NCBI GenBank assembly: GCA_017609205.1
Contig: JAFCEL010000001.1
Coordinates: 360,001-392,000 of the forward strand
Direction of reading: 5' to 3'
Source of the DNA: Candidatus Saccharimonadota bacterium
Lineage (GTDB): Archaea; Nanobdellota; Nanobdellia; Pacearchaeales; GW2011-AR1
Length of the DNA stretch: 32,000 nucleotides
A program made the translations under genes and the position numbers. Shown here piece after piece: positions 3,391-31,540 of the stretch. The notes beneath the pieces were generated by a model, which worked only from the letters and a program-made list of their open reading frames with translations, was not told the DNA's origin and made no database searches. Within the stretch, counting starts at the first letter, position 1, and every line of letters starts with the position of its first letter.

Positions 3391-3400
3391 TATTTATAAA
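3391..3400 (+). promoter_or_regulatory. TATA-box-like element upstream of the endonuclease Q gene
   Basis: TATTTATAAA ends 20 nt before ATG 3421. The same spacing recurs at many genes in the window (leaderless-type layout). Confidence 0.4.
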
Positions 3401-3420
3401 TTATCTTTTTTATTCTATTC

Positions 3421-4635: not shown

Positions 4636-4645
4636 GAAGATTAGA

Positions 4646-4783: not shown

Positions 4784-4784
4784 T

Positions 4785-5489: not shown

Positions 5490-5532
5490 GTTATAAATAG
5501 AAAGAATTATATTTTAAAGGTTGTGATGAGCC

Positions 5533-6870
5533 TTAAACCTTAATAACTTCGATTTCTAGATTTTTCTTTAGTAAATCAATGAATTCTTTTTCCTTTTCTT
5601 TTTTAATTATACAACCTGCAGCGTGCTCATGTCCTCCTACTTCTCCGCCAGTTATTTTTATTATTTCGCTTAGTATTTCCCTTACGTTTCTTCCGCAGTT
5701 TCCAACATTTCTTACAGATACTTTTATTTTGTCTTTGTAATAAGCCATTGCTGTTATTACTGTTCCTTTTTTGTAAATCCTTGAATGAGAAAGAATACTT
5801 GCTATTGTTCCTATGATGGTTTCCTGTATCTTCTCTCTTGCATTTATTATTACAAAATTTTTCCCATTTATCTTTTCCATATTTTCTGCGAATTTCAGGG
5901 AGGAGATTAGGTTCTGTTTGTATTTTGCATAAATTGCTTCTGATTTTTTCTTTGCTGAATTTATTTCCATACAGAATTGTATTGCTATTTCAGGATTTCC
6001 AGAACGAGAGCAAGCATTAATTATCGCACTTATTTCTCTTGCATCTTCAAGTTTATTGAACATCTTTATAAGAAAAATATCTCCTATTAGTTCTTTATTT
6101 TTTATCTTAGGATTTCTAAGGATTATTGCAGTTGTTAATTTCTTCATTTCATCCTCGTCTAATTCAATAAGACTTTTGTATTTCCCGTTTTGGAGTTTTA
6201 TACCTGTTTCTCTCAGCAGTTCTAAAACACCTTTTGTTTCTCCTGTTACTCCAGGGATGTATGGATTTGAACAAAATTCAAGGGTTCTGTTTAAAGGTCT
6301 GGTTGAGGGATAAATGAGTAGACCTCTTTTTCTCTTTATTTCGCTATCGTTTAGTATACCTTCATTTAGTTTATCTATCTCTTTTTCTAATTGGTCTCCT
6401 ATCATTCCGAGAACAGCAAGTTTTGCGAATTCTTTGTTTTTTTTGTCTAACTCTTTGCAGAATAAGTATGTCAGCCCAGAACTGCTTATTTTTTCATCAC
6501 CATTCAAATGAGGGTTTATTATTCTGAGTTCTTTTGGAATTTCTTGATTTATCTCATGGTGATCTATAATATAGCAGTTTTTAGATACATTATATTTTTC
6601 TAGATGATGTAAACTTCCTGATGCTAAATCTAGAAAGACTATTGTTTTGTCTTTTGGGAGTTTTGAGATTAATTCTTCTTCGAGATTTTTTACTATTTTT
6701 AGTGAAAATTTTCTATCAAGGTTTTTCAATGCCTGAATAAATATCGTGGCAGAACTTATTCCGTCAGTATCAAAATGACTTAAGATTATAATTTCTTTAT
6801 CTTTTGGTTCTTTTAAGAAGTTCTCTGCTAAAAGTCTAATTTCCTCTTTTAATGATTTTTTCTCTTGCAT
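5533..6870 (-). CDS. DHH/DHHA1 phosphoesterase, archaeal RecJ/GAN (Cdc45-like) family
   Basis: SHFDTDGISSA (DHH motif region), IIDHH, and C-terminal GGHEHAAG DHHA1 motif. Confidence 0.75.
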   Translation of the reverse strand: MQEKKSLKEEIRLLAENFLKEPKDKEIIILSHFDTDGISSATIFIQALKNLDRKFSLKIVKNLEEELISKLPKDKTIVFLDLASGSLHHLEKYNVSKNCYIIDHHEINQEIPKELRIINPHLNGDEKISSSGLTYLFCKELDKKNKEFAKLAVLGMIGDQLEKEIDKLNEGILNDSEIKRKRGLLIYPSTRPLNRTLEFCSNPYIPGVTGETKGVLELLRETGIKLQNGKYKSLIELDEDEMKKLTTAIILRNPKIKNKELIGDIFLIKMFNKLEDAREISAIINACSRSGNPEIAIQFCMEINSAKKKSEAIYAKYKQNLISSLKFAENMEKINGKNFVIINAREKIQETIIGTIASILSHSRIYKKGTVITAMAYYKDKIKVSVRNVGNCGRNVREILSEIIKITGGEVGGHEHAAGCIIKKEKEKEFIDLLKKNLEIEVIKV

Positions 6871-6905
6871 TTTCCTCTTTTAATAAAGCAATTCCTTAGA
6901 ATAAA

Positions 6906-7238
6906 CTATTTTAATGGAAGTTTTAGATACTTCTTTATCTTTCTTAATTGAGAGAAAACCCTATCTTTCTCTCTCATTGCTCTTTTATCTTGTTTGTTTT
7001 TCTCATAATGTTTTTTTATTCTCTCGAGTTTTGCTTCAATATTCTTTAAATCAGGATTAACGTAGAGTTCTTTTTCCTTGAGGATCTTTGAGATTTTCTT
7101 GGAATATTCTTTTGGATGAATTCCTTGTTGTTTTAATTTTTCTCCAATCTTTTCAGCAGTTAAGCCTGTTTTAGCTAATTCTATTACTTTTTTCTCAAAG
7201 TCGGTTTGTGATAATTTTCCTGTTTTTTCTTTTGACAT
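6906..7238 (-). CDS. rps15: 30S ribosomal protein uS15 (S15P/S13e type), short N-terminus
   Basis: VIELAKTGLTAEKIGEKLKQQGI, then KISKILKEKEL..PDLKNIEAKLERIKKHYEKNKQDKRAMREKDRVFSQLRKIKKY matches the archaeal S15 helical pattern. Confidence 0.75.
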   Translation of the reverse strand: MSKEKTGKLSQTDFEKKVIELAKTGLTAEKIGEKLKQQGIHPKEYSKKISKILKEKELYVNPDLKNIEAKLERIKKHYEKNKQDKRAMREKDRVFSQLRKIKKYLKLPLK

Positions 7239-7358
7239 TTTATTAAATTGTAAATTGGTTTTTTAAAGATTGCTATGTCAAGTTTTTTAAATTAATATAT
7301 CTTTATTTTTGATGATATTATTAAAGAGGGTGATTAGTCCAATATTTTGGAGGATAAA

Positions 7359-8150
7359 TTGAAGACAATTGGTGTTATTTCGCTTAAAGGAGGAGTTGGT
7401 AAAACCTCTAGTGTTATTTGTTTAGGTTCTGCACTTGCGAGTCTTGGAAAGAAGGTTCTTCTTGTCGACGGGAATTTTTCTGCTCCTAATCTTGGTTTGT
7501 ATCTTGACCTTTTTGATGTTGATAAAACACTTCATCATGTCCTTAAGAGAGAAATCAATCCGAGTGAAGCAGTTTATAATCTTGATAGTTTTGATGTTCT
7601 TCCTTGCTCTGTTTTTGGGAATTTTAATATAAGCCCGATGAGACTAAAGGAAAGATTGAGGCATCTTAAGAGAAGCTATGATTTGATTATTCTTGATTCT
7701 TCGCCTACATTGAATGAAGAAACTTTGGCAGTTATGAATGCATCTGATTGTTTAATTGTTGTGACAACGCCAGACCATGCCACATTAGGTATGACACTAA
7801 AAGCAATTAAGATAGCTAAGCAAAAGGGGGTTCCTATTATTGGGTTGATTATTAATAAATCATATAAAAAGAGATTTGAGCTCTCGCTTGATGACATAGA
7901 AAAGACATCTGAAGTTCCTGTACTCGCAGTTATTCCTTATGATATTGGTTTTTTAAAATCTCTTGCTGATTTTAAATCCTATACAGACTATAGTCCTCGT
8001 TCAGAGGGTGCTGAGGAATTTAAAAGATTAGCTGCTGTTTTAATTGGAGAAAAATATAAACCTGTTAAATTAAGAAGGTTTTTTAGATGGGTTAATCCTA
8101 GGAAGCAGGATATAAATAGGGAGATTTATTATCAAAGTGTGTTTGAATGA
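7359..8150 (+). CDS. MinD/ParA-family P-loop ATPase
   Basis: Deviant Walker A KTIGVISLKGGVGKTS, LLVDGN, IILDSSP. I prefer TTG 7359, preceded by GGAGG at 7349-7353, over the track start at 7347 (same frame). Confidence 0.8.
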   Translation: MKTIGVISLKGGVGKTSSVICLGSALASLGKKVLLVDGNFSAPNLGLYLDLFDVDKTLHHVLKREINPSEAVYNLDSFDVLPCSVFGNFNISPMRLKERLRHLKRSYDLIILDSSPTLNEETLAVMNASDCLIVVTTPDHATLGMTLKAIKIAKQKGVPIIGLIINKSYKKRFELSLDDIEKTSEVPVLAVIPYDIGFLKSLADFKSYTDYSPRSEGAEEFKRLAAVLIGEKYKPVKLRRFFRWVNPRKQDINREIYYQSVFE

Positions 8151-8225
8151 TTTATTTTAATATTTAATTTCTGTGATTTATTGAGTAAGTAACTTTTATA
8201 AATTAATTTAATCTTTTTGGAGTAA

Positions 8226-8298
8226 AGCCCCATAGTACAGTGGTCAAGTATGCTAGCCTTTGGAGCTAGAGACCCAGGTTCGAATCCTGGTGGGGCTA
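8226..8298 (+). tRNA. tRNA-Gln (anticodon UUG), no encoded CCA
   Basis: Hand-folded cloverleaf: acceptor AGCCCCA/TGGGGCT with A1-U72 and A73, D arm GTAC-AGTGGTCAA-GTAT, anticodon arm CTAGC-CTTTGGA-GCTAG, 4-nt variable loop, T arm CCAGG-TTCGAAT-CCTGG. Confidence 0.9.
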
Positions 8299-8299
8299 T

Positions 8300-8788
8300 T
8301 TAATGTTTATATCGTCCTCTTTTTTCTACTATTTTTAGTCTCTGAAGAACTTTTTCTGCTTCTTTGGATTCAATTGATTTATATCCTTTTTCGAATTCCT
8401 TGTATATTTCTTTCCAGTGCTTAAAGTGTTTTGCTTCTAATGCTTGTTTTAATAGATGAATATCTACAGCTTTGTCTTCGTATTTTCCATTAAAATAGCC
8501 AAGTCCGAAGTCGATGAAGTAGATTTGGTCTTTAATTAGAATCATATTTGAGGTTGTGAGGTCGCCGTGAATTATGTTCTTGTTGTGGAGTTTTGCAATA
8601 TCTTTTCCAATTTGGTTTAGAATCTGTTTTTGTTTTTTTAAGGATAATCTGTCTAGGGTTTCTGATAATTTTTTCCCATCAATAAATTGAATTTTTAATT
8701 TTGTTTCTTTTGCTTCTAAAACTTTTGGTGTATTGATTATCTTCCTTGCTTTTTCAAGAAGTTTGGCTTCTGCACGCGTTCGTCGCAT
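8300..8788 (-). CDS. bud32: Bud32/Kae1-associated (KEOPS) protein kinase; kinase-like coding continues upstream to 8902 with no canonical start
   Basis: IHGDLTTSNMIL catalytic loop, YFIDFGLG. The same frame upstream of ATG 8788 reads QNEIAQGAEARIILTNNLIIKDRIKKSYRIPELDKKIR, which is the Gly-rich loop region. Confidence 0.8.
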   Translation of the reverse strand: MRRTRAEAKLLEKARKIINTPKVLEAKETKLKIQFIDGKKLSETLDRLSLKKQKQILNQIGKDIAKLHNKNIIHGDLTTSNMILIKDQIYFIDFGLGYFNGKYEDKAVDIHLLKQALEAKHFKHWKEIYKEFEKGYKSIESKEAEKVLQRLKIVEKRGRYKH

Positions 8789-8902
8789 ACGGATTTTTTT
8801 GTCGAGTTCTGGAATACGATATGATTTTTTTATCCTATCTTTTATTATGAGATTGTTAGTTAGAATTATTCTTGCTTCTGCTCCTTGTGCGATTTCATTT
8901 TG

Positions 8903-9574
8903 TTATAGGTTAATTATCTCACCAATTTCATATTTTTTACTATCTTTTTCCTTGATGATTGTTATCGGTGCGAGACCTATTGTTTTGCATACTTCTCCAT
9001 CTATAAAAAGCGCTGATTCTTCAGGTATTGCAATAACATTTCTTTTTGTTTTTTTGATATACTCTTGATGTTCTTTAATTTGGTCGTCTTCAAAATGGCA
9101 CTGAATGTCAAAATTTTTCACAAGATTCATCCCCCTTGTATCGCTAATCTTAACTTTGTTTTTATCTTTTTCTTTACATATTAGTGCAATGGAGACATCT
9201 TTCCCAAAGATTATTGCTCCTGCAGAACCGCCATAAATTGTCCCCCCTTTTTTGTAATAATTAACTAATTTCTTATCAAAGCCACTTTCTTTAATGCTTT
9301 TTAACAATTTGAAGGTGTTCCCTCCTCCGATGTAAATAGCATCATAATTTTTTAAGTTAATTTTTCTATTACAATTAGTCAGAGTATCAAACTTAATATC
9401 TTTGTTATGTAATGTAAGCATTTTTGCAAACCATTTTTTACATTCTTTATAACTTTCTTCCTTCCATGCTAGAGGAATGTATAAGATCTTTTTGATCTCT
9501 TGTAGAAAGATTTTGTCTAAAGCATATGTTTTTATTTCATTTCCCCCTCCTGATAAATATAATTTCCCTTTCAT
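8903..9574 (-). CDS. Peptidase S51 / dipeptidase E-like (class I glutamine amidotransferase-like fold)
   Basis: LYLSGGGN, AIYIGGGNTFKLL, GGTIYGGSAGAIIFG (nucleophile Ser context). Confidence 0.65.
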   Translation of the reverse strand: MKGKLYLSGGGNEIKTYALDKIFLQEIKKILYIPLAWKEESYKECKKWFAKMLTLHNKDIKFDTLTNCNRKINLKNYDAIYIGGGNTFKLLKSIKESGFDKKLVNYYKKGGTIYGGSAGAIIFGKDVSIALICKEKDKNKVKISDTRGMNLVKNFDIQCHFEDDQIKEHQEYIKKTKRNVIAIPEESALFIDGEVCKTIGLAPITIIKEKDSKKYEIGEIINL

Positions 9575-9575
9575 C

Positions 9576-10943
9576 CTAGAATTTTAATTTCTTTCCTTTC
9601 ATAAATTTTCTTGCTAATTTCATCATTTGCTTTTGGGATATTGGTTTTTCAGGATCGAAGTTTGAAGAATCCTTGAGCATTGTGTTTAGCATTTTGTATT
9701 GTTTTAATAATGAGCGAATTTCTGAGTTGGTTACCCCTGCTCCATGTGCAACACGATTGAGGCGGGAAGTTCCTGTTTTTTTGTCGTCAAAAAGGGTTGG
9801 GTTTTGTCTTTCTTCTGGTGTCATTGATTTTATAATATGCTCCCATTTTTTGATTTTAGCTTCTTGAGTTCCTAAAAGCTCTTCTGGAATTTTTGCAGAG
9901 CTAAAGCCAGGAATCATTGATTTTATTTTATTAAAACCCCCGAGTGCGCTCATTGATTTGACTTGTTCTATAACATCTTCTAGTGTTAGTTTTCCTTCTT
10001 TGAGAATTTTTTGTGATTTTTTTTCATCAGTTACAGATTTTATTTTTTCAATTAAAGATTGCAAATCACCCATGCCGAGTAATCTTGATAGAAATCTTTC
10101 TGGAGCGAACTCTTCGATATCATTTATCTTTTCACCATTTGTTATAAAATAAACTGGTGCTTTTGTTTCTGCGCAAGCTGTTAAGGCACCCCCTCCTTTT
10201 GCAGTAGAATCCATTCTTGTAATAATAACACCTGAGATATTCACAGCATCCTTAAATTCTTGTGATTGCTTTTTTGCGGCTTGTCCAATATCTGCAGGCA
10301 TAACAAGAATTGTTTCTGTTGGTTGGATTTCTTTACTTAGATTTTTTATTTCTTTTATTAAGGCTTTGTCTAAGTTATGTCTTCCTGCTGTGTCTATTAA
10401 GACTAAATTATAGTCTTTTAATTCTTTCTTGAACTTCTTCCATGTTTTGACTGCATTATTTTCTTTTTCATCTATAAAATAGTCTAATTTGTTTTTTTCA
10501 GCGAGTTGTTTTAATTGTTCTTTTGCAGCAGGTCGATGAACATCTAAACCGACTAGAGCAACTTTTTTTCCTCGTTTTGCATAATAATTTCCTAGTTTTG
10601 CAATGGTGGTTGTTTTTCCAGCTCCATAGAGTCCCAGAAGCATAATCCTGTTTTGTTTTGACTGCAGTTTAAGTTGTTTGTATTCTCCGAGAATCTTCAC
10701 TAATTCGTCATGAAGGATCTTAATTAAATGCTCTTTTTTTTCAATTCCTTTTATTCTCTCATCAAGAGCAACTTTTTTTATTTTGTCTGATAGTTGTTTT
10801 ACTAGTAAGATATTCACATCAGCTTCAATTAGTGCTCTTTGCAAGTCTCTTATAATTGAATCAACGAGGTTTTTATCCAGAAATATGGCGTTTGTTATTC
10901 TATCAGTTGCTTTTCTTATTACTTCTCCGAGTCTTTCTAACAT
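9576..10943 (-). CDS. srp54: Signal recognition particle protein SRP54
   Basis: N domain, G domain GLYGAGKTTT / DTAGR / TRMD, and a Met-rich M domain. Confidence 0.95.
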   Translation of the reverse strand: MLERLGEVIRKATDRITNAIFLDKNLVDSIIRDLQRALIEADVNILLVKQLSDKIKKVALDERIKGIEKKEHLIKILHDELVKILGEYKQLKLQSKQNRIMLLGLYGAGKTTTIAKLGNYYAKRGKKVALVGLDVHRPAAKEQLKQLAEKNKLDYFIDEKENNAVKTWKKFKKELKDYNLVLIDTAGRHNLDKALIKEIKNLSKEIQPTETILVMPADIGQAAKKQSQEFKDAVNISGVIITRMDSTAKGGGALTACAETKAPVYFITNGEKINDIEEFAPERFLSRLLGMGDLQSLIEKIKSVTDEKKSQKILKEGKLTLEDVIEQVKSMSALGGFNKIKSMIPGFSSAKIPEELLGTQEAKIKKWEHIIKSMTPEERQNPTLFDDKKTGTSRLNRVAHGAGVTNSEIRSLLKQYKMLNTMLKDSSNFDPEKPISQKQMMKLARKFMKGKKLKF

Positions 10944-10944
10944 T

Positions 10945-11763
10945 TTATAGTATGTCTAAAGGGCTTTTTATATTTTCTATATCTGTGTTAGCAACATGGG
11001 TATAAACCTGAGTTGTTCTAAGATTTTTGTGCCCTAATAGTTTTTGTATTTTCCTTATATCCACTCCTTGCTCTAATAAATGGGTTGCGAAAGAATGCCT
11101 TAAAACATGGGGCCTTATTTTCCTTCCGAGAGCTTTTTTCGAGCTTTTTTCTAGGATTTTTTCTATACTTTTTGAAGAGTATTTTTTATTTCTGTTTGAT
11201 TCAAACAAGTGGTCTTTTGGAGTATATTGTAAAAGGTATTTAAGAAAATCGTTTTTAATTGATTCAGGGAAAAGGGTTATTCTGTCTTTTTTTCCTTTTC
11301 CTTGTCTAATATAAATTATCTTTCTTTCAATATCAATGTCCTTTGGTTTAAGGTTAGTTAACTCAGAGACTCTTAATCCTGCAGAATAAATTAGTTGCAC
11401 AATTAGCCTATGCTTCAAGTTTTTTATCTCTTTTATTATCTTGGAGATTTCTGTCTTGTTTAATATTTCGGGAATTTTTGATTCTGTTTTGTAATTTGGA
11501 AGTTTAAACTCACTTTGTTTTCCAATGATTTTAAATAATATTCTTAAGGCAGAATATTTTTGTTTTATGTAGCTTGTACTTTCTTTTTTCTCAATACTTT
11601 TTAATAAGTATTTCTTAACATCATCATTTGAGGGGTTATTAGAACTTTTTCTTATAAAATCTTCTATTATTCTTGAGTATGATTTTATAGTTTTCGAAGA
11701 CAAATTTCTTAATCTTAGGTAATTCTCATATTCTTGTTTAATCGAACTTATTTTTTTGTGCAT
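10945..11763 (-). CDS. xerA: Xer-type tyrosine recombinase (XerA-like), candidate integrase of the adjacent cassette array
   Basis: Catalytic series AGLRVSEL (R), GKGKKDR (K), HVLRHSFATH (H-x-x-R), LLGHKNLRTTQVYTHV (H, Y). Only 272 aa. The stop lies 1 nt from the srp54 start. The start faces the attI-like GTTAAAC box. Confidence 0.9.
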   Translation of the reverse strand: MHKKISSIKQEYENYLRLRNLSSKTIKSYSRIIEDFIRKSSNNPSNDDVKKYLLKSIEKKESTSYIKQKYSALRILFKIIGKQSEFKLPNYKTESKIPEILNKTEISKIIKEIKNLKHRLIVQLIYSAGLRVSELTNLKPKDIDIERKIIYIRQGKGKKDRITLFPESIKNDFLKYLLQYTPKDHLFESNRNKKYSSKSIEKILEKSSKKALGRKIRPHVLRHSFATHLLEQGVDIRKIQKLLGHKNLRTTQVYTHVANTDIENIKSPLDIL

Positions 11764-11799
11764 AATCTATTCCATAAAGAGGATTTTATATAATTTGTG

Positions 11800-11829
11800 A
11801 TAGAAGTTCGATTAAAAGGTGTTAAACGA
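11800..11829 (+). other. attI-like insertion point (G|TTAAACGA)
   Basis: GTTAAACGA at 11821-11829, 58 nt upstream of the recombinase start codon. It is the exact reverse complement of TCGTTTAAC (11983-11991) in the first attC-like site. Confidence 0.45.
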
Positions 11830-11984
11830 AATTTTTTGCCCCTATTTTTTTGGGTTTTCTTTTTTTTAGTCTGTCTTCGGCAGAATTGATTTGGGGCAAA
11901 AAACTCTGCGGAAAAATCAAAGATTTTTTCCTTGCCTCGCTGCGCTCTCACTCCACTTCGCTATCGCTTCGTTTCGTTCGGGTC

Positions 11985-12080
11985 GTTTAACAGCGATTAA
12001 GAGGTTCGCTTGTTGCACTTCGCTCTCCCAAATTTCTTCGGCTTCGCCTCAGAAACTTCTCTTAATCGCTCATGTTATCC
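11985..12080 (+). repeat. attC-like site 1
   Basis: R'' GTTTAAC; L'' CGATTAAGAG (11994-12003) is perfectly complementary to L' CTCTTAATCG (12059-12068); 5-nt spacer; G|TTATCC at 12074. Internal C(TTCG)G hairpins. Confidence 0.65.
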
Positions 12081-12104
12081 GAAATGCCGACGAAAACGCA
12101 AGCT

Positions 12105-12113
12105 TTTTAAATA
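12105..12113 (+). promoter_or_regulatory. TATA-box-like element of cassette 2
   Basis: TTTTAAATA ends 20 nt before ATG 12133. Confidence 0.45.
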
Positions 12114-12132
12114 ATCAAATTTTATTTAATTT

Positions 12133-12774
12133 ATGGTTAAAGAAAAATCAAAAAATCTTACGATTTTTATCGCGGTCGTTGTAATATTAGTTTTGGCCAC
12201 TGGTTTTTTAACATATTCTTATACATTAAATCAATTTTCATCCTCACAAGAAGAAACACTTAATTTTTTTAAAGAATATTCTATTGCATTAAATAATATT
12301 CATATCGCTTCTGGTTTTTTAGATATCGCATTATTGAATTTGAATGCAGGAAATTCGTATGTTGAGACTGGCGAATACTATTATGAATTTGCGATAGATT
12401 ATTATGATACTGGAAAAGAACAGGTTTTGGATGCTAAAGAATTACTTAATAAAGCTAAAACAAAATTACAAAACCTGCAAACTAATGCCCCAAATTCTTT
12501 TTTCCAAGAGGATGTCGAAAAGCGAATAGAACAAGCAGATTCTTTAATTTCTGTTAGTAATGATTTATATTCTCTTCTTGATTACCAGAAGCAACAACTT
12601 TACGAAATTAATTATGGTTCTGAATCAAAGGCAACAGAATATTATAATAAATATAATGCCCTTATCCCAGAATTTAATAATAAACTAAAAAAATTAAGTG
12701 AAATCCAAAACCAGATTGATTTAAATTGGGACCAAGATTGGTATCCTACTTTCCAAGAAACAGCGACCGCTTGA
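12133..12774 (+). CDS. Hypothetical membrane-anchored protein (N-terminal TM, helical ectodomain)
   Basis: AT-rich coding-like ORF with hydrophobic LTIFIAVVVILVLATGFL near the N-terminus. I recognise no family motif. Confidence 0.6.
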   Translation: MVKEKSKNLTIFIAVVVILVLATGFLTYSYTLNQFSSSQEETLNFFKEYSIALNNIHIASGFLDIALLNLNAGNSYVETGEYYYEFAIDYYDTGKEQVLDAKELLNKAKTKLQNLQTNAPNSFFQEDVEKRIEQADSLISVSNDLYSLLDYQKQQLYEINYGSESKATEYYNKYNALIPEFNNKLKKLSEIQNQIDLNWDQDWYPTFQETATA

Positions 12775-12859
12775 TTTTTCTTTTCGTCGGCACTCTGCGG
12801 ATTTTCTACGAAAATCCTTGCCCCATTGCATTCTCAAAATCCTTCGGATTTTTCGGGTC

Positions 12860-12954
12860 GGATAACAACGATTTAACGGAAAATCCCTTGCAGGAATTTT
12901 CCCAAATTTCTTCGGCTTCGCCTCAGAAACTTCTCTTAATCGCTCATGTTCGCC
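12860..12954 (+). repeat. attC-like site 2
   Basis: R'' GGATAAC is the reverse complement of the GTTATCC junction at 12074. The right half (12900-12950) is identical over 51 nt to site 1 (12026-12076). G|TTCGCC at 12948. Confidence 0.65.
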
Positions 12955-13080
12955 AAAATTTTCCCTTTGCCCTCCAGAGTCGGGTAAATCCTCACGCTGG
13001 TTTTGAGGTGCTTCCCTTAACGCTCCAATCCGAAATCGGAGGACATCGGATAATATCGCTGATTAAAGGAAATTTGAAAA

Positions 13081-13512
13081 ATGGATAAAGAAATAAAGTT
13101 TGAAGCATTTGACTTGAGAAAAGTAAGACCTCTCTTGTTGAAAATAGCAAAAGAGAAAGGTAAAACTTACGAAGAAGTTAAGAGAGTGTTTTACGAAAAG
13201 ATAGAAATTCCATACGCACCTCAAAGCGTATCGGACAAAGGAAAAACTCACGAGGGTGTTTTGAACACCACTCGTGCCGACTTCGTCGGTCGGCGAACAC
13301 CGAATAAACGGAAAAATGCTTTGGCTTCGCCAACCTGTTTTTTACAGGACGCATTTTTCTCAAATTCTTGCTCCGCAAGAACTTCGTTTATTCTATCCAT
13401 TAGTCGAAATTTAATTTGGTGCAAATTTGCCCGCCCCCTTAAGCGTGTGCTTAAACTCAATTATAATAATCTTTATATATATGAATCAATAACAGTCTTA
13501 TATGCCACTTAG
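13081..13512 (+). CDS. Small hypothetical protein; only the first ~55 codons look coding, the rest reads through attC-like site 3
   Basis: MDKEIKFEAFDLRKVRPLLLKIAKEKGKTYEEVKRVFYEKIEIPY is coding-like. From ~13245 the frame runs through the GC-rich repeat and across the 13399 junction without a stop. Confidence 0.35.
   Translation: MDKEIKFEAFDLRKVRPLLLKIAKEKGKTYEEVKRVFYEKIEIPYAPQSVSDKGKTHEGVLNTTRADFVGRRTPNKRKNALASPTCFLQDAFFSNSCSARTSFILSISRNLIWCKFARPLKRVLKLNYNNLYIYESITVLYAT
13292..13405 (+). repeat. attC-like site 3
   Basis: R'' GGCGAAC is the reverse complement of the GTTCGCC junction at 12948. L'' CGAATAAACG (13301-13310) pairs with L' CGTTTATTC (13385-13393). Inner stem GAAAAATGC/GCATTTTTC encloses two hairpins. 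Junction A|TTAGTC at 13399. Confidence 0.6.
13472..13479 (+). promoter_or_regulatory. TATA-box-like element of cassette 4
   Basis: TTTATATA ends 22 nt before ATG 13502. Confidence 0.45.
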
Positions 13513-13954
13513 ACAATATGCAGAATGGGTTGATGCACCCAGAACAAAAACTTATTTTCAAGAAGGTAGAGCAGGAATTTTAAGATTAGATGCTCATAAA
13601 GAGTTTTCTCCTGAGCATACATTAGATTTAGTTATTGCTAAAACAACTCTTTATGAAGATTGCAATATCTCCTCTAAACTCCTTCCTCTAGTTGTTGCAA
13701 TGTGGGAGAGGAAAGGAGATGAAAGACTTAATGACTTCTATTCTTTTGATAATAATGGCGTCTGCTTATCTCATGGTTATTCAAGAATGAAAAATGGTCA
13801 ACGAGTTGTAGATGAACAACACGATACAGATATAAGCAGACTTATTGAATATGGAGAAGTCATTAAAGATTTAATAGGAGATTATCCAATTCCTGCTCAA
13901 TTAGCAATGCACACGACAGTTATTGATTTAAGACAAAATACCTTAAGAGAATAA
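13502..13954 (+). CDS. Hypothetical protein
   Basis: 150-aa ORF that fills cassette 4 (13400-14177), with a TATA box at the standard distance. No motif recognised. Confidence 0.6.
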   Translation: MPLRQYAEWVDAPRTKTYFQEGRAGILRLDAHKEFSPEHTLDLVIAKTTLYEDCNISSKLLPLVVAMWERKGDERLNDFYSFDNNGVCLSHGYSRMKNGQRVVDEQHDTDISRLIEYGEVIKDLIGDYPIPAQLAMHTTVIDLRQNTLRE

Positions 13955-14058
13955 CGCACATGCTTTTTTCTTTTCCCACCCAATAAGCACCAAATTAAAC
14001 TCTTCGCCAGCCCTTCGGGACATTGCATTCTGGCTCGGTTTTTTCTACGAAAAAACTC

Positions 14059-14183
14059 TACTAACAGCGATTAAGACTCCACTCACTTGCAGTTCGCTAC
14101 GCCCTTCGGTTTTGTGGGTTGCCTCAAAACCTACGGGGAAATAAATCCTTCGGATTTACTTCTCTTAATCGCATATGTTGCTT
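14059..14183 (+). repeat. attC-like site 4
   Basis: R'' TACTAAC (5/7 complementary to the 13399 junction). L'' CGATTAAGAC pairs with L' CTCTTAATCG. Several C(TTCG)G / CTACG hairpins. G|TTGCTT at 14177. Confidence 0.55.
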
Positions 14184-14316
14184 GGCTTCGCCCAAATTTT
14201 TTCTTAATTATAACGGGCAGGGGCTTTTTAGTCCTTCGGACATATTTTTTATTCTAAAATAGAAATATTTAAATACTATTAAATTAATATTTTAATAATA
14301 TTCAGAAGATGATAAA

Positions 14317-14484
14317 ATGGTAAAAATTCAAAAAACAAATACGGGTCAATCAATAATAACCATCCCTCGAAGTATTATGAGGGCTACTGGCTGGGGAAGA
14401 GGGACCGAATTAATGCCTTATGTGGATGAAGAAGGAAAACTTATTCTGAAAGAGATAAAAATTAAAAAGAGGATGAGAAGATGA
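14317..14484 (+). CDS. AbrB/SpoVT/MazE-type swapped-hairpin DNA-binding protein (55 aa, below the ORF-track cut-off)
   Basis: Hand translation: MVKIQKTNTGQSIITIPRSIMRATGWGRGTELMPYVDEEGKLILKEIKIKKRMRR*. Its stop overlaps the dcm ATG (ATGA at 14481-14484). Confidence 0.6.
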   Translation: MVKIQKTNTGQSIITIPRSIMRATGWGRGTELMPYVDEEGKLILKEIKIKKRMRR

Positions 14485-15521
14485 ACAGTAAAAATCCAAT
14501 TGCAATAAGTTTATTCTCTGGCATGGGAGGACTTGACTTAGGACTAAAGAAAGCAGGCTATAAAATTGCTGTTCAACTTGATATAGATCACCATTGTATT
14601 GAAACGCTTAAAACCAATTGGCCAAGAGTCCCAAAAATACAAGAAGACATAGCATTTCTTACTGCAAGAAAGATTTTATCAAAAGCCAACCTTAGTAAAA
14701 GAAAAGTTGATCTTATCGCTGGAGGACCAAGTTGTCAACCATTCTCACGATCAAATGAAGGAAAACGAAAGGGGGTTAAAGATAGAAGAGGCAAACTTAT
14801 TTTTGAGTTTGCTAGGTTAGTAGACGAGATTCGACCCAAAGCATTTATTATGGAAAATGTTGCAGGACTGATATCTTCAAATAAAGGGAAAGATTTCAAG
14901 AAATTACTCAATTTTTATAATAAAATTAATTATCACATTCAATATCAAGTTCTAAATGCAGCTGAATATGGACTTCCACAGAAAAGAAAAAGATTATTTC
15001 TTGTCGGCTTTAGAAAGAAAACAAACTTTAATTTTCCAAATCCAACTCATGGCGAGGGAGATGGCTTAGCACCTTTCGTAACAAGCGGAGAAGTATTAAG
15101 AGATTTAGATGATGGTATAATCCATGATAGTACCGTTTCAATAGGTGGAAAACATGGTCATCTTATTAACGATATCCCCCCTGGAATGAATTATATTTAT
15201 TATACTGCAGAATATAACCCAAAAAATGCTATCTTTCGTAATAGATCAAAGTTCTGGACATTTTTATTAAAATTAGATCCTAAACAGCCCTCTACAACAA
15301 TCCAAGCAAGTCCTTGGAGTCATGTAGGTCCCTTCCACTGGAATAATAGACGACTAACTATTGCAGAAATTAAGCGGCTCCAAGGAATACCTGATAACTA
15401 CTTCGTATCGGGTGCCAGAGAAAAAGAATATACCTCACCAGCATGGAGACAGATAGGTGATGCTGTTCCTCCATTGCTTTCTTATGTTCTGGGGAAAGAA
15501 ATTAAAAAGATAATTTATTGA
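14481..15521 (+). CDS. dcm: DNA (cytosine-5)-methyltransferase
   Basis: Motif I FSGMGG, motif IV GGPSCQPFS, motif VI ENV, motif VIII QKRKRLF, motif X GDAVPP. Confidence 0.92.
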   Translation: MNSKNPIAISLFSGMGGLDLGLKKAGYKIAVQLDIDHHCIETLKTNWPRVPKIQEDIAFLTARKILSKANLSKRKVDLIAGGPSCQPFSRSNEGKRKGVKDRRGKLIFEFARLVDEIRPKAFIMENVAGLISSNKGKDFKKLLNFYNKINYHIQYQVLNAAEYGLPQKRKRLFLVGFRKKTNFNFPNPTHGEGDGLAPFVTSGEVLRDLDDGIIHDSTVSIGGKHGHLINDIPPGMNYIYYTAEYNPKNAIFRNRSKFWTFLLKLDPKQPSTTIQASPWSHVGPFHWNNRRLTIAEIKRLQGIPDNYFVSGAREKEYTSPAWRQIGDAVPPLLSYVLGKEIKKIIY

Positions 15522-17422
15522 TCACCATACTTATCCAAATATTCTTTAATTCTTTCATTTGCATTAGGAAATTTAACGGGCAGAGGGATATTCGTTAGTC
15601 CTGTAGCATCATAGCTAAACAGCATCCATTGTCCTTTTGTAAATGTTAGAGTTCTCTGTATCATCTCTTTAGATGCTCCGAAAGCTTTACCAATAGTGTC
15701 CCTATCATACTCTCTTGGTAATTTTGATAACAAGAAAGTATGAGGTTGAGCCAGTATAGACGTATCAAGATAGGCTACTCTTTGTGTTGCTAATGCAAGA
15801 CCTAGACCAAACTTTCTACCTCTTCTCGCAAGTAAAGTGCTCGCACTTCTTGATCGTTGGTAACTTTCGCCTCCTGATTGTGGTATGAATTCATCAGCTT
15901 CATCGTAAAGGAAGAGCACATGCGGATCAATTTCTCCACTTGTTCTTCTCCTTCTGAATGCATAGTTTACCATATGACTTGAAAAATCTCTCAAGTCATC
16001 GTCACGATTGCTCTGAACAATTATAAGTGCAGGTTTTGACTTATCGGTAAACGTTCGGTAGATTTGATCCATAGAAAGTATGGCCTTCTCAGGCAATGGT
16101 TCTTCTTTTGTTGCACTGAGATATCCTCGTACTACCTCTTGCATCCCGGAAAGTATTATTCTCCCTGTATCATTGAGTCTTACTGTCCGTTCAGTTGGTG
16201 CTCTGGGAGCAGTTCCCATTAAACTTTGCTGAACAGATTCTCCTCCTTCTTGTCTGGTATAGTCTACCAAGGCATTGTCTTGAAGTGCCTGGCCTATATC
16301 GGCATCTAATGCTTGAAGTTGTTGCTCAGAAACAGGATCAACACCTGAACCTCGCAGGTGTTCATCAATCATTCTACGAATATGAAACTCATTATTCCTT
16401 GAACCACTTTGTATTCTTTCACTGAGTTCACTCCTAAGATCACTAATTGTAGGGTTTGTAGAACCTGTACTGAATATTCTTATTTTATTTGCTTTCAGGA
16501 TTTCTTTGAAAAGTGGCAAATACTTGTCTTGATAAGGAATTAACTCTTTAGGTAGGAGGAGGGTTCTGACAATTGATTCAGCAGCTTCGTTTAACTTGGA
16601 TTCATCACCACGTATATAATCCTCTACTGCTTGTGAACCTGGCAAAGAGTCTTCTGTTACACATAAGATATATGCTTCATCAATCTTATGAATCAAATCA
16701 ATTAATAAGCCACTATACTCAGTCATAAGATCAAAGAGTACAACCTTATTTTCTTTAGCAACTGAAATAAGGTTACTTATAAGATTACTTAGCAGATTAG
16801 ATTTACCAGCTCCTGTGAAACCAAAGACTCCAAAGTGAGTTCTCAGTAAATCTTCTGTGCTTAGTTTGACACCAACTTTATCATTCAATATCAAAGTACA
16901 AGGTTCAATAGTCGGAACTTTTTCAGAGAGCAGCCCTTTATTAACAATTTGGTTTATTTGTTCATCTGTAAGTAAATGGGCGTCTTCACCTATCATAGGA
17001 AGACTCTCATCAACGTCAATAGATGCTTTATTATCTTGAGTAATAGTTAGTTGCAATCCTGTTGATATCGCTTCTGCCTTAATTTTAGTTGTTTGTTCAA
17101 TAGGTTCTTCTTGTTCCCAATCGACTTTAGCATTCTTTGCTGCTTCTATTACAAATCCTGGAAAGGCTCTTTCAGTGTCTCTTGATGAAACTCCGAGAGC
17201 ATAATGTTTAGGGAACACTGAAACAAGTTCAAGAATGCTGAAAGTGTTGTCCCCATTAACTCCACTATAATTTCTTACAGCGACAAAACTCCCTACTTTG
17301 ATTTCGCCGACAAACATTTTTGTATATGGAAACCATACAGCATAACTTAACTCCGCAGTACTTTCTGTGTCCATTGACACAACGACTCCTTTTGGACTAT
17401 CTTTAAAGTATTTCATTTTCAT
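15515..17422 (-). CDS. HerA/DUF87-like hexameric ATPase
   Basis: N-terminal barrel-like region (GEIKVGSFVAVRN), Walker A HFGVFGFTGAGKSNLL, Walker B VLFLYDEADEFIP. The 3' end overlaps the dcm 3' end by 7 nt. Confidence 0.7.
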   Translation of the reverse strand: MKMKYFKDSPKGVVVSMDTESTAELSYAVWFPYTKMFVGEIKVGSFVAVRNYSGVNGDNTFSILELVSVFPKHYALGVSSRDTERAFPGFVIEAAKNAKVDWEQEEPIEQTTKIKAEAISTGLQLTITQDNKASIDVDESLPMIGEDAHLLTDEQINQIVNKGLLSEKVPTIEPCTLILNDKVGVKLSTEDLLRTHFGVFGFTGAGKSNLLSNLISNLISVAKENKVVLFDLMTEYSGLLIDLIHKIDEAYILCVTEDSLPGSQAVEDYIRGDESKLNEAAESIVRTLLLPKELIPYQDKYLPLFKEILKANKIRIFSTGSTNPTISDLRSELSERIQSGSRNNEFHIRRMIDEHLRGSGVDPVSEQQLQALDADIGQALQDNALVDYTRQEGGESVQQSLMGTAPRAPTERTVRLNDTGRIILSGMQEVVRGYLSATKEEPLPEKAILSMDQIYRTFTDKSKPALIIVQSNRDDDLRDFSSHMVNYAFRRRRTSGEIDPHVLFLYDEADEFIPQSGGESYQRSRSASTLLARRGRKFGLGLALATQRVAYLDTSILAQPHTFLLSKLPREYDRDTIGKAFGASKEMIQRTLTFTKGQWMLFSYDATGLTNIPLPVKFPNANERIKEYLDKYGDQ

Positions 17423-17428
17423 ACCCTC

Positions 17429-19668: not shown

Positions 19669-19699
19669 TAAAAATCAATCCTTCCCTTCGGTCAGGAGA

Positions 19700-19826
19700 A
19701 ACTAACAGCGATTTAACGGTTCCGCTCCGTTGCACTCGCTCACCCATATTTTTTCCTACGGAAAAAACACTCGAGGTCACTTCGTTCCACTCGAGCCCTT
19801 CGGGTCGCTTAATGCGGATGTTAAGT
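19700..19826 (+). repeat. attC-like site 5
   Basis: R'' AACTAAC, AG spacer, CGATTTAACGG. Internal hairpins TTTTTTCC-TAC-GGAAAAAA and CTCGAG..CTCGAG. G|TTAAGT at 19820. The L arms are poorly complementary (mosaic). Confidence 0.5.
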
Positions 19827-20534
19827 TCAATTTGCCCCAGAGTCCTTAGGAAGTTGCGGTAATGCTTTAACATATCGTGATACAACATCACAAAAAGAAT
19901 TCTCATCACTTGAAGAATTAATACGATGGAAATGAATTTTAGGATCTTGAGTTATGCCAAAAACTTCATATTTTCTTTCTCCCGTGGGAGGAAAACCAAA
20001 AACTTGTAAAGGAATTCCTCTATATTTGGAATAAGCAAAACTTAGTGGACATTCATACCCTGATTGAACTAAAAGATCCTTAATTGGTTTCGCTGATACT
20101 GGAACTCTGTAGGGAATTATGTTGATATTCTCCCAAGCATGTGCAATATCTTTTCCTAATTCACCTGAAGTATTATGATTCAAATCGAATTCCAATAAGT
20201 ATACTAAATCTCTATTCACAGGATCAAGTTCCCGTGGAGATATTTTTCTTACACTATGATTTGGACCTTCTGATAAAAAATCAGGCACATGATAATCAGG
20301 AACTGCAATGATCCCATATCTTCCAGCAACATCTCCAGTAGTTTGAGGAAACTCTATTGCAATAATTCCTTCTTTTAATGGAATTTGACCAAAAAATGGA
20401 ACACTAACCATTGTTTGTATTATTGAAGTAGGAGTCATCAATTTATCCATAATCATCTTATCTGAATATGCAAAAAAATATCTTTGGTATTTTGGACCGC
20501 TTCTTTTGGTTCTACTTTTCTTCTTCTTTGGCAT
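19827..20534 (-). CDS. Hypothetical protein (start moved to MPKKKK)
   Basis: The first 25 codons of the track ORF lie in the repeat. ATG 20534 has a TATA box 20 nt upstream. No family recognised. Confidence 0.5.
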   Translation of the reverse strand: MPKKKKSRTKRSGPKYQRYFFAYSDKMIMDKLMTPTSIIQTMVSVPFFGQIPLKEGIIAIEFPQTTGDVAGRYGIIAVPDYHVPDFLSEGPNHSVRKISPRELDPVNRDLVYLLEFDLNHNTSGELGKDIAHAWENINIIPYRVPVSAKPIKDLLVQSGYECPLSFAYSKYRGIPLQVFGFPPTGERKYEVFGITQDPKIHFHRINSSSDENSFCDVVSRYVKALPQLPKDSGAN

Positions 20535-20564: not shown

Positions 20565-20625
20565 TGTACGGACTCTGGGGCAAACTCTGCGGACGCAGTT
20601 TTCCCACACTGCGTATGGGAAAAGA

Positions 20626-20745
20626 ACTTAACAGGGCTTAAAGGGTTCGAAACGACCGGCTTCGCCTATTTTGCCAAGCAAAATTCGTTTCTCTCCCAAA
20701 TTTTTTGTCTGCGACAAAAAACTTCCCTTAAGCCCGATGTTAAGT
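20626..20745 (+). repeat. attC-like site 6
   Basis: R'' ACTTAAC is the reverse complement of the GTTAAGT junction at 19820. L'' GGGCTTAAAGGG pairs with L' CCCTTAAGCCC (one bulged base). G|TTAAGT at 20739. Confidence 0.6.
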
Positions 20746-20805
20746 TCAATTGAGTTCTCGCTTAATATTAAGAAACGGGAAGGGGGCTTAGTCCCTGCGG
20801 GACAG

Positions 20806-22678: not shown

Positions 22679-22842
22679 CAGCCCCCAACTCTAATTTTTA
22701 AAAGATACAACGGCACTCTCTCTTATTAATATATTTTCTGACGGCTTCCCGCCGTCCCAGAGTTCGTTTTAACTTCTCCGTTCGCTACGCTCACTCCGAC
22801 CACGCCTTGCAGGCTCTCACTCCATTTCATTCCGTTCGGGAC

Positions 22843-22929
22843 GCCTAACAGCCGTTAAAAGAGAAATTCCTGCGAAATTTCTCCAAATTTTTCCCTTCGG
22901 GAAAAACTTCTTTTAACGGCATATTAGTT
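22843..22929 (+). repeat. attC-like site 7
   Basis: R'' GCCTAAC (the classical inverse-core sequence). L'' GCCGTTAAAAG is perfectly complementary to L' CTTTTAACGGC. TTTCCC-TTCG-GGAAA hairpin. Junction A|TTAGTT at 22923. Confidence 0.55.
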
Positions 22930-23039
22930 TCAATTGCAAATTCTCTAAATTGTTGAGTTGAAAAATAGGAGAGGACACTTTAAAACCCCCGACCACCCGC
23001 CCCTAAATTGAGAGGGGTTGCTTATTAAAAAGAAAAATC

Positions 23040-29953: not shown

Positions 29954-30006
29954 ATAGTCAGCCCCTCTACGAGAATAAAAACAAGTGTTTTCTCTTATAC
30001 GATCCT

Positions 30007-30102
30007 CTCTAACAGAAAATTTTAAACTCACGGGGGGCTTTTTTAGCCCAGCTCGTGCCTTCCGCTTCGCTTCGGAAACTTCGTTAAATTCCGATGTTAA
30101 GT
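30007..30102 (+). repeat. attC-like site 8 (with CACGAG hairpin module)
   Basis: CTCTAAC-AG-AAAATTTTAAAC ... CACGGG-GGGCT..AGCCC-AGCTCGTG ... CGTTAAATTCC-GAT-G|TTAAGT at 30096. Confidence 0.45.
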
Positions 30103-30131
30103 GAAATTCCGAACCCCTTAAAAACGAAATG

Positions 30132-30717: not shown

Positions 30718-30766
30718 TATTTTTCTTATAGGGGGTTCGGAACTCTGCGCTCACTTCGTTCGGGAC

Positions 30767-30885
30767 GCCTAACACGGCTTATGAGGTTCGCTTCGTTGCA
30801 CTTCGCTCTCCCAAATTGAGTTCTCAGCTCTGTTCCCTTTGGTCACGAGGAAAACTGAAACTTCGTTAAATCGCATATGTTTATT
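30767..30885 (+). repeat. attC-like site 9 (mosaic)
   Basis: R'' GCCTAAC. The left half resembles sites 1 and 7. The right half, ACTTCGTTAAATCGCATATGTT, is identical over 22 nt to site 10. G|TTTATT at 30879. Confidence 0.45.
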
Positions 30886-30958
30886 TCAATTGTTCGAAGT
30901 GCACCAATAATGTTAAAAACAAACATTTATTTACTTAAAATGATTTATATCAAATATA

Positions 30959-31288: not shown

Positions 31289-31357
31289 ATGTGCCCATTG
31301 AAAAACTTCTTCGGCTCCGCCTAGACCACGCTGCGCTTTTGCCTATCGGCTCGGGGC

Positions 31358-31446
31358 GTATAACAGCGATTTAACTGTTTCGCTCGTTGCACTTCGCTCC
31401 ACCCAAATCGGCTAACGCCGACTTCGTTAAATCGCATATGTTCAAT
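31358..31446 (+). repeat. attC-like site 10
   Basis: R'' GTATAAC. L'' GCGATTTAAC pairs with L' GTTAAATCGC. G|TTCAAT at 31440. The 81-nt tail (31440-31520) is 78/81 identical to 20744-20824. Confidence 0.5.
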
Positions 31447-31540
31447 TGAGTTATCGCTTAATTTTAAGAAACGGGAAGGGGGCTTAGTCTCTGCGGGACA
31501 GATAGTTTCGGCTTCGCCTCAAAGTTTATAGGGGGCGTCT

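Follow-up and report, generated by a model that had tools for sequence, protein, structure and literature searches.

A chromosomal integron-like locus in Pacearchaeales with a XerA-family recombinase as its proposed integrase

Integrons with a canonical integrase (IntI), known from bacteria and from the archaea surveyed by Ghaly et al. (2022), are laid out with the recombinase gene reading away from an adjacent attachment site, attI, beyond which stand mostly co-oriented cassettes, each ending in an attC site, an imperfect inverted repeat of the form R''-L''...L'-R' that folds into a hairpin and is conserved in structure while variable in sequence. Crossover falls within G^TT (a caret marks points of crossover or cleavage throughout), and R' is a hybrid whose outer bases come from the next cassette. 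The present study concerns a locus that shares all of these features, found in a 32,000-nucleotide stretch (the window) of contig JAFCEL010000001.1 (positions 360,001 to 392,000, forward strand; GenBank assembly GCA_017609205.1), which is deposited as Candidatus Saccharimonadota bacterium and belongs to the archaeal family GW2011-AR1 of the Pacearchaeales. Unlike canonical integrons, its recombinase is without the IntI-specific additional domain (the I2 helix) and falls below the cut-offs of both IntI models, its attI is a near-symmetrical, dif-like core site, the spacer of its folded attC is paired rather than open, with unpaired bases on the opposite arm from the bacterial ones, and searches of the IntegronFinder type score such loci as integrase-less.

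The I2 helix is required by detection software and is regarded as the key to recombination of folded, single-stranded attCs. Its acquisition was described as the innovation of IntI toward single-strand recombination, and it was proposed to have arisen in a Xer-like ancestor hijacked by single-stranded integrative mobile elements exploiting Xer (IMEX) (Escudero et al. 2020). In bacterial attCs, the extrahelical bases of the recombined bottom strand lie on the arm opposite AAC (Nivina et al. 2016) and are read by the I2 pocket. The archaeal survey reported attC arrays with 539 attCs against six IntIs, all bearing the IntI-specific domain and none in Pacearchaeales, and most of the arrays were integrase-less clusters (Ghaly et al. 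2022). Data S1 of that survey lists nine Nanoarchaeota genomes with attCs and zero IntI at 51-79% completeness, four of which are Pacearchaeales of family GW2011-AR1; on those Data S1 figures, the chance of missing IntI in all nine by incompleteness alone is about 4e-5 if each carried one. That published IntegronFinder screen thus gives no IntI in attC-bearing genomes of Pacearchaeales and Woesearchaeales. Arrays of Pacearchaeales have until now been filed as integrase-less clusters, and what is new here is the arrangement with an adjoining Xer-type candidate integrase; no earlier report of Xer-type integrases beside archaeal attC arrays was found in the literature, subscription journals lying outside the search.

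Several Xer systems offer closer comparisons on the side of the enzyme. With XerA/dif of Pyrococcus abyssi and Thermoplasma acidophilum, the locus shares the protein family, length, and fold, a pass on the NCBIfam XerA model, and a two-arm target with a 6-bp spacer and cleavage (here predicted) at the spacer border; unlike in XerA/dif, the site adjoins the gene and then a cassette array, its right arm is variable and supplied by the cassette, and the same orders hold a second, more conserved XerA family. CTX phage and IMEX likewise use Xer without I2 and a single strand that folds into a mimic of the dif site, of which the present locus displays the site mimicry, the reaction being predicted: one strand pair would be exchanged, replication would finish the reaction, and tandem stacking at the site would be possible, as it is for those elements. 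Unlike them, the locus has small cassettes without replication or phage genes, together with an integron-type attC and junction signature, and, unlike CTX phage, it has a single recombinase and not XerC plus XerD. In XerS/difSL and XerH/difH, one Xer protein has its target site right beside its gene. Unlike the one described here, those sites function in dimer resolution, and they are not known to have arrays of hairpin cassettes after them. The pdif sites of Acinetobacter plasmids are ordinary double-stranded XerC/XerD sites in alternating orientation, not co-oriented, folding attCs beside a dedicated attI. The modules themselves resemble the present cassettes in that they are gene modules bounded by Xer-type sites and thought to be Xer-mobile (PMC7399989).

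The recombinase and its class

The recombinase (Table 1) consists of a SAM-like N-domain and a Phage_integrase domain (Pfam). Its R131, K156/K159, H219, R222, H245, and Y254, the full R-K-H-R-H-Y set, are invariant in 15 of 15 homologues, and exactly 57 residues separate GKGKKDR (residues 155-161) from HVLRHS (from residue 219). On the NCBIfam model recomb_XerA_Arch (NF040815; cut-off 220) it scored 234.5 bits, covering model positions 2-261 of 263, and other members of its family, hereafter clade A, scored 210-264 bits, with P0054 below the cut-off; XerA was the best match by E-value for all 15 members of alignment A1. Neither integron-integrase model was passed (TIGR02249, 179.5 bits vs a cut-off of 265; PRK15417, 110.3 bits vs 435), and six clade-A proteins scored singly on TIGR02249 reached a maximum of 208 bits.

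The closest solved structures by sequence, P. abyssi XerA 4a8e (E 2e-48) and T. acidophilum XerA 5hxy, were also the top structural matches of an AlphaFold model (predicted local distance difference test score, 82.7), in which the region from the beta-hairpin to box II holds the usual two XerA helices and no extra helix. The match to Vibrio cholerae IntI4 (2a3v) falls in two pieces, skipping IntI4 173-242 (70 residues) against 28 query residues, and an alignment with XerA, clade-B (see below), and bacterial Xer proteins contains no clade-specific insertion. By spacing, by the IntI4 alignment, and in the AlphaFold model, the I2 helix is absent between the beta-hairpin lysine and box II; the enzyme is of the Xer/XerA type without the IntI insertion and is not filed as IntI. 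Pfam searches of the open reading frames (ORFs) and tblastn with a 36-protein panel detected no second tyrosine recombinase in the 32-kb window. An initial annotation, made from the letters of the window, had described a 272-aa protein as the only recombinase at the array, with the full catalytic set, about 57 residues between the two motifs as in archaeal XerA, and no room for the IntI insertion, for which a check by IntI models was advised; the located and invariant residues, the count, the alignment with XerA, both model scores, and the search of the window agree with it on every one of these points.

The attI site, the attC array, and the cassette junctions

The attI site begins 40 nt upstream of the recombinase start codon, with its crossover point, between G11821 and T11822, 58 nt upstream. 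Its arms, 12 bp each, match at 10 of 12 positions as an inverted repeat, and at the arm/spacer border, which published XerA/dif work gives as the cleavage position of XerA and other tyrosine recombinases, the bottom strand reads TAA^CA (top strand TG^TTA). The pattern was found once in the window vs 0.01 expected by chance. The GTTAAAC box (11821-11827), which the initial annotation had seen abutting the 5' end of the recombinase gene as attI-like, proved to be part of this conserved and unique site. Independent loci of the nearest subclade agree in left arm and spacer (AAGTTCGATWAA-ARGKTG) and diverge exactly past the G of G^TT. Across recombinase subclades the left arm reads AAGTTCGATTAA, CAAGTAGAyyTAAT, or AGTTTATTTAA, ending in every case in TAA or TAAT, then about five bases, then G^TT; since the arm differs between subclades, site and enzyme change together. 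A TATA-like box between the gene and attI, kept in position in related loci, may be a promoter, and if it reads toward the cassettes it would be a candidate for the promoter Pc that integrons have at the attI end.

Exact attI-type sites with the TTAnnnnCAAT continuation were also seen without an adjoining recombinase gene on metagenome contigs L095, L097, L099, and L102 (handles of this kind denote loci throughout), directly after rpl15e in L099 and with an attC downstream in L102 and L095. The attI pattern had 13 metagenome matches, of which two (L094 and L100) look like chance hits and were set aside.

An Rfam search of the window matched only a tRNA and no attC-like family, and a simple scan for AAC...GTT hairpins gave 14 matches vs 0-8 in shuffles, barely above that background; a covariance model was used instead. 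It was built from an alignment of 22 hairpin repeats from the window and six related loci, the set chosen for pairing, and sites were counted at E<0.01. The model found 43 sites in 8 loci, 21 of them beyond the aligned set, all on the 5' side of the recombinase in one relative orientation and none in window positions 1-11700. The window accounts for ten of the attCs (11977 to 31452), every one of them on the plus strand and to the right of attI, and the array continues to the window end. The first of them closes a 253-bp cassette without an ORF.

Each attC comprises R'' (nnnnTAAC), L'' (about 11 nt), a variable centre, ACTTC, L', 2-3 extra bases, and R' (GTTAnnnnnAAT). Unlike bacterial attCs, whose centres are not conserved, those of the window and L081-L090 (alignment A2) carry a nearly invariant CCAAAT in the centre and a nearly invariant ACTTC just 5' of L', motifs that may represent either an additional site of protein binding or the L arm's outer half. 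The helix formed by the L boxes has compensatory changes at 10 of its 11 pairs across the 22 aligned sites, and 93% of its cells are paired vs 30-43% with the partner slid by 1-3 columns; pre-selection inflates the 93% but does not explain the compensatory changes or the slide control. One pair of the helix, A25:T199, is unpaired in 5/22 sites.

The 3' half of attC (ACTTC-n3-TAA-n7/8-G^TTA) and attI (AGTTC-n3-TAA-n5-G^TTA) have equal spacing of outer and inner arm motifs, the attC spacer being 2-3 nt longer by the very bases that are unpaired in the fold, and in both CA directly follows the bottom-strand cleavage point. On the attC bottom strand, the 2-3 unpaired bases come after AAC on the same arm, a departure from the opposite-arm rule of bacterial attCs. 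The otherwise paired spacer would fit an enzyme that recognises a duplex-like Xer site and not extrahelical landmarks, and attI and attC look like two versions of one putative binding site.

Were circles inserted at G^TT, the bases past G^TT should complement R'' of the next attC. Complementarity was 5/5 in 20 and at least 4/5 in 28 of 42 consecutive junctions from 8 loci, while 4% of random R'/R'' pairs reached 5/5, R' compared with R'' of the same attC gave background values (mean 2.2 of 5), and 0 of 10,000 permutations matched the observed counts. Going from attI to the attC nearest it, complementarity is 5/5 in the window, where TTAAACGA of attI is complementary to the R'' box of attC 1, as well as in L081, L085, L086, and L088, and by eye in L105. 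This complementarity is the signature of circular cassettes inserted at G^TT, and on these sequence grounds the array is a true cassette array, with attI as its insertion point. A crossover in R'', which would put the attC ahead of its ORF, was ruled out: attI is conserved to the G of G^TT with no L'' after it, and the order attI, ORF, attC in L084 contradicts it.

Within the window, pairing of L'' with L' is only partial in attC 2, and the L boxes of attC 5 and attC 9 are unpaired; all three look chimeric, and over its 3' 60 nt attC 2 has 95% identity to attC 1. Such chimeras, with L'' and L' from different sequence variants, suggest exchange within the conserved attC centre. Other irregularities were noted along the array. 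A 143-aa ORF (13081-13512) runs straight through attC 3 (13284-13411), and the true cassette gene there probably encodes about 60 aa, if there is one at all. Two attCs have in common an 84-nt segment that begins right at R' (20741-20824 and 31437-31520; 95% identical); the same cassette start therefore occurs twice in the array. Swapped half-sites, an L'-like CTCTTAACCGAC followed by R''-L'' TCTAACATTGGTTAAGAAG without a matching L'-R', stand at 20836-20915 and 23094-23122, and similar elements lie near the array head in L106, at about 9700-9800.

Table 1 Positions in the window of the recombinase gene, attI, attC sites, and adjoining features
Feature	Position	Strand	Details
srp54 (context)	9576..10943	-	start codon 1 nt past recombinase stop
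XerA-type tyrosine recombinase (clade A), without IntI-specific insertion	10945..11763	-	272 aa; proposed integrase of the array
TATA-like archaeal box TTTATATAA	11785..11793		between recombinase start and attI; position kept in related loci
attI, dif-like core site	11804..11833	+	left arm, spacer, right arm; once in window
attI left arm AAGTTCGATTAA	11804-11815		
attI spacer AAGGTG	11816-11821		6 bp
attI right arm TTAAACGAAATT	11822-11833		
attC 1	11977..12086	+	R'' GTTTAAC 11985-11991; R' from G12074; 89.9 bits; folded
attC 2	12852..12960	+	R'' GGATAAC 12860-12866; R' G12948; 60.5 bits; folded
attC 3	13284..13411	+	R'' GGCGAAC 13292-13298; R' ATT for GTT at 13399; 52.2 bits; fold z-score -6.2
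attC 4	14051..14189	+	R'' TACTAAC 14059-14065; R' G14177
attC 5	19692..19832	+	R'' AACTAAC 19700-19706; R' G19820; 43.7 bits
attC 6	20618..20751	+	R'' ACTTAAC 20626-20632; R' G20739; 79.2 bits; fold z-score -7.1
attC 7	22835..22935	+	R'' GCCTAAC 22843-22849; R' ATT at 22923; 75.9 bits; fold z-score -5.4
attC 8, weaker match	29999..30108	+	R'' CTCTAAC 30007-30013; R' G30096; 34.6 bits, E about 1e-4
attC 9	30759..30891	+	R'' GCCTAAC 30767-30773; R' G30879; 46.8 bits; no stable fold
attC 10	31350..31452	+	R'' GTATAAC 31358-31364; R' G31440; 62.5 bits

Related loci and the role of the enzyme

Homologue searches returned hundreds of close clade-A relatives. The related recombinase loci compared here have homologues 48-79% identical to the window protein, and 12 clade-A loci had enough upstream DNA; the related sequences are incomplete metagenome assemblies, and all evidence is comparative. 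An attI with an attC or array lies on the 5' side in 11 of the 12 loci, L104 having only a half-site, which answers a check proposed in the initial annotation, whether orthologous recombinases in relatives also sit beside repeat arrays. On the 3' side, the neighbour is RNase P p30 in L088, a HerA-like gene in L090, small ORFs and a ribosomal cluster in L089, and a tRNA-modification gene in L105 and L106. Array length runs from one cassette in L084 (attI to ftsY) through about 3 kb in L106 (inside a 359-kb contig) and about 9 kb in L086, ending at ftsY, to >20 kb in the window. Cassette genes are not common to different loci, and attI is constant between close relatives. Near-identical attCs (94-97%) occur in hosts whose recombinases are 58-67% identical: attC 4 of the window is 97% identical to one attC of L088, the recombinase of which is 58% identical, and 94% identical to one of L086. 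On the 5' side of many clade-A genes the contig stops within some hundreds to some thousands of bases, which is what would happen where assemblies are broken by repeats or strain variation. In L089, an ORF-less cassette of about 170 nt was seen three times (7642-7813, 5695-5810, 3653-3824; 96-97% identical).

In the window the recombinase stop codon (10945-10947) is 1 nt from the srp54 start codon (10941-10943), another 1-nt gap separates srp54 from an S51 peptidase gene, and an ORF for a RIO/Bud32-type kinase follows 114 nt further on the same strand. The head-to-tail packing of these genes had been noted correctly in the initial annotation, but the housekeeping character read from it is not supported as stated, the packing being limited to the nearest subclade, in which srp54 follows the recombinase at four independent related loci besides the window (L081, L084, L085, L086; a 1-nt gap in the last three). 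The gene for the signal recognition particle (SRP) receptor, ftsY, marks the far array end in L084 (7766-8899) and L086 (32-1222), and with srp54 flanking the recombinase, the array of the nearest subclade therefore lies between two SRP GTPase genes.

These loci bear on whether the cassettes are moved by a canonical IntI, coming either from a gene at some other place in the genome or from a different cell or element, with the Xer-type gene an innocent neighbour of the insertion site. Room for such an enzyme is left by a window that stops inside the array, with the far end beyond it, by the incompleteness of the related assemblies, and by attI-like sites that have no adjacent recombinase, and some archaeal attCs are substrates of bacterial IntI1 in E. 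coli (Ghaly et al. 2022). Yet gene, attI, and array stay linked through changed genomic contexts and at protein identities of 48-79%, each recombinase subclade has its own form of the attI arm, and the window holds no second recombinase. No IntI stands beside the complete arrays of L084, L086, and L106, the far ends of which are bounded by housekeeping genes, and in Data S1 of the published screen (Ghaly et al. 2022) the IntI count is zero for the nine Nanoarchaeota genomes with attCs, which are estimated to be 51-79% complete. The unpaired bases of the attCs also lie on the other arm from those that IntI reads. We regard an IntI acting in trans as decidedly improbable. Coincidental adjacency, one of two options left by the initial annotation, with the true integrase elsewhere, is very unlikely; it is contradicted by the linkage in 11/12 loci, the co-varying attI arm, the complete arrays without IntI, and the published screen.

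The second question is what the enzyme is chiefly for. A genome scan with the LRHSFATHL motif, which returned mostly bacterial XerC/D loci and five useful archaeal ones, together with the homologue searches, revealed a second XerA-type family, clade B (L003, L025, L058, L107). With clade B as the query, the family returned was very large and strongly conserved, its members carrying the labels Pacearchaeota, Woesearchaeota, or Nanoarchaeota; clade A, like clade B, has members in Pacearchaeota as well as in Woesearchaeota. Clade-B proteins share 67% identity on average and clade-A proteins 56%, against 41% when A is compared with B, and in a neighbour-joining tree bootstrap values were 100% for clade B, 59% for clade A, 61% for clade A with two bacterial Xer proteins of the Candidate Phyla Radiation (CPR), and 2% for A and B alone. 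Both clades pass or approach the XerA model, and neither comes near the IntI cut-off. Clade-B genes of L003, L025, and L107 are syntenic with an rpS9-rpL13-rpL18e cluster, with a MVCEKCGY-type protein in L003 and L025, and the gene of L107 lies 5 kb from cdc6/orc1 and PolD. No array and no significant attC was found near the clade-B genes (0/4 loci). The copy in L058 has lost catalytic residues (KKDG for KKDR, YTLRH for HTLRH). As the two families each span the same orders, they would be paralogues, with clade B as the putative housekeeping resolvase, for which its stronger conservation, its synteny, and its lack of arrays make it a better candidate than clade A.

This bears on the alternative that the clade-A recombinase is the housekeeping dimer resolvase and attI the chromosomal dif, where the cassettes pile up as IMEX-like hairpin parasites; catalyst and chemistry are then the same as for a dedicated integrase, and only the primary role of the enzyme differs. 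The build of the site (arms, 6-bp spacer, cleavage at the spacer border) matches descriptions of XerA/dif, the arms of the window attI agree at 10/12 positions as an inverted repeat, the protein scores above the cut-off of the XerA equivalog model, and its gene is packed 1 nt from an essential gene, srp54, in the window, L084, L085, and L086; attI-like sites away from any recombinase gene are what a chromosomal dif would give. Xer genes from six CPR loci (L002, L005, L011, L018, L029, L059; Patescibacteria, Saccharibacteria, Peregrinibacteria) group with clade A and have dif/attI-like boxes just upstream of xer, such as ATTATGCGTATAGGAAGGAG^TTGTACGACATAAT in L029, and this keeps the reading of a co-opted resolvase alive. 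Three points speak against a housekeeping role: the same orders have the clade-B XerA, which is better conserved and keeps synteny with genes of the ribosome and of replication; what lies 3' of the clade-A genes varies between subclades; and in the published case of Thermococcales, dif does not adjoin xerA. A housekeeping resolvase beset by parasites of its dif seems unlikely to us, and a dedicated, Xer-derived integrase is the more likely identity of the recombinase on the comparisons made.

The contig ends within about 600 nt upstream in five of the six CPR loci, and also in L041, and the archaeal attC covariance model found no match on the CPR loci. CPR bacteria may have the same kind of platform, and clade A may have descended from a module of xer plus adjacent dif of the XerS/XerH kind. 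A tight grouping of the recombinase with single-copy XerA orthologues from array-less relatives, which the initial annotation had named as contrary evidence, was not observed, every adequately sampled clade-A locus but L104 having an array. Of the choice it had posed, a Xer-type enzyme beside the array whose adjacency is not coincidental stands, and the co-option of a housekeeping enzyme is not supported as stated there, with clade B the better candidate for that function.

Proposed reaction, cargo, and wider meaning

On balance, we think it probable that the locus is a chromosomal integron-like platform whose integrase is a XerA-family (clade A) enzyme without I2, most probably a specialised paralogue and not the dimer resolvase. 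That the recombinase would be the catalyst of the array, that a single strand would be exchanged, with the bottom strand chosen, and that it would be dedicated to this task are what we infer from the comparisons above. In every sequence feature examined the locus is integron-like, except for the IntI domain and the position of the unpaired bases, and we place the putative system among the integrons, as a variant whose working would combine that of an integron with CTX-type integration at dif. For the proposed reaction, double-stranded attI is laid out like a Xer core site (arm AAGTTCGATTAA, 6-bp spacer AAGGTG, arm TTAnnnnnAAT), and single-stranded attC would fold into a copy of it, with an L arm ACTTCnnnTAA, a 6-bp paired spacer with 2-3 unpaired bases, and an R arm of TTAnnnn paired with nnnnTAA. 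The enzyme would bind the arms of attI and attC, the bottom strands would be cleaved at TAA^CA (top strand TG^TTA), that one strand pair would be exchanged, and the intermediate would be resolved by replication, as in bacterial integrons and in CTX-phage integration at dif.

Several observations weigh against this interpretation. Several attCs of the window are chimeric or degenerate, with unpaired L boxes in three of the ten and ATT for GTT in two, and 14/42 junctions fall below 4/5, mostly far from attI or around long multi-gene segments, where parts of the array may be decaying, old, or rearranged. Some metagenome attI-like sites have no recombinase beside them. The monophyly of clade A is weakly supported (59%, neighbour-joining), the two clades are alike on the XerA model, with the term paralogue resting on the tree, taxon labels, and synteny, and neither tblastn of clade B against the collected loci nor a comparison of neighbouring NCBI accession numbers found clades A and B together in one genome. 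By crystallography, the I2 helix docks the extrahelical attC bases, and it is held to be the innovation permitting single-strand recombination (Escudero et al. 2020); a single-strand reaction by an I2-less enzyme is therefore only a proposal.

The damaged L boxes and ATT triplets would also suit an array that is a fossil or is kept by other means, whether homologous exchange at attC centres or clade-B XerA, with the clade-A protein inactive on it, as would the multi-gene stretches of 5.6 and 7.2 kb between recognisable attCs and the nearly invariant motif of the attC centre, which could support homologous exchange. Against such inactivity, cassette content is wholly different between close relatives while attI is fixed, arrays range from one cassette (L084) to >20 kb (window), attCs 94-97% identical occur in hosts with recombinases 58-67% identical, the catalytic residues are all intact and invariant, and the junction rule is perfect at the attI-proximal, most recent junctions. 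We hold a fossil array to be highly improbable, and prefer the integron-like platform with a clade-A integrase.

Two long segments of the array carry recognisable gene sets. The 5.6 kb between two attCs at 14178-19820 hold an AbrB-like 55-aa ORF, a C5 cytosine methylase, a DUF87/HerA ATPase, and a 604-aa unknown protein, and look like a defence island; the stretch is bracketed by GGCAGGGGCTTTT...GTCCTTCGGACATATT (14216-14247) and an inverted AAAAGCCCCTGCC...GTCCTTCGGACATATT (19532-19563), with a third copy at 24372-24403. At 24502-29953, a Cys-rich 72-aa peptide, a peptidase-MA protein, a radical-SAM/SPASM enzyme, an 85-aa ORF, a CARDB protein, and then an FtsX/ABC transporter pair look like a modified-peptide gene set, similar to those for ribosomally synthesised and post-translationally modified peptides (RiPP-like), inside the array. 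On the far side of srp54, the RIO/Bud32-type kinase ORF (8300-8788) encodes 162 aa without the N-terminal lobe, vs 200-250 aa in orthologues of relatives, and may be truncated or have a mis-set start; a tRNA-Gln (8226-8298, plus strand) lies directly downstream of it.

If the proposed system is real, attC insertion beside an I2-less Xer-type enzyme would mean that I2 is dispensable or that a second solution exists, and it would explain why nearly all archaeal attC arrays are scored as integrase-less, giving gene-capture platforms a wider reach in DPANN archaea. The hypothesis of a Xer hijacked by single-stranded elements would become testable with a small protein and two short DNA sites, and a minimal recombinase for single-strand cassette insertion may result. 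More tentatively, and in our view doubtfully, the locus could represent a living pre-I2 stage of integron origin in the sense of Escudero et al. (2020), common across DPANN and maybe shared with CPR bacteria; if so, surveys based on IntI would greatly understate how widespread integron-type gene capture is, and it would have an earlier origin and a simpler machinery than they suggest.

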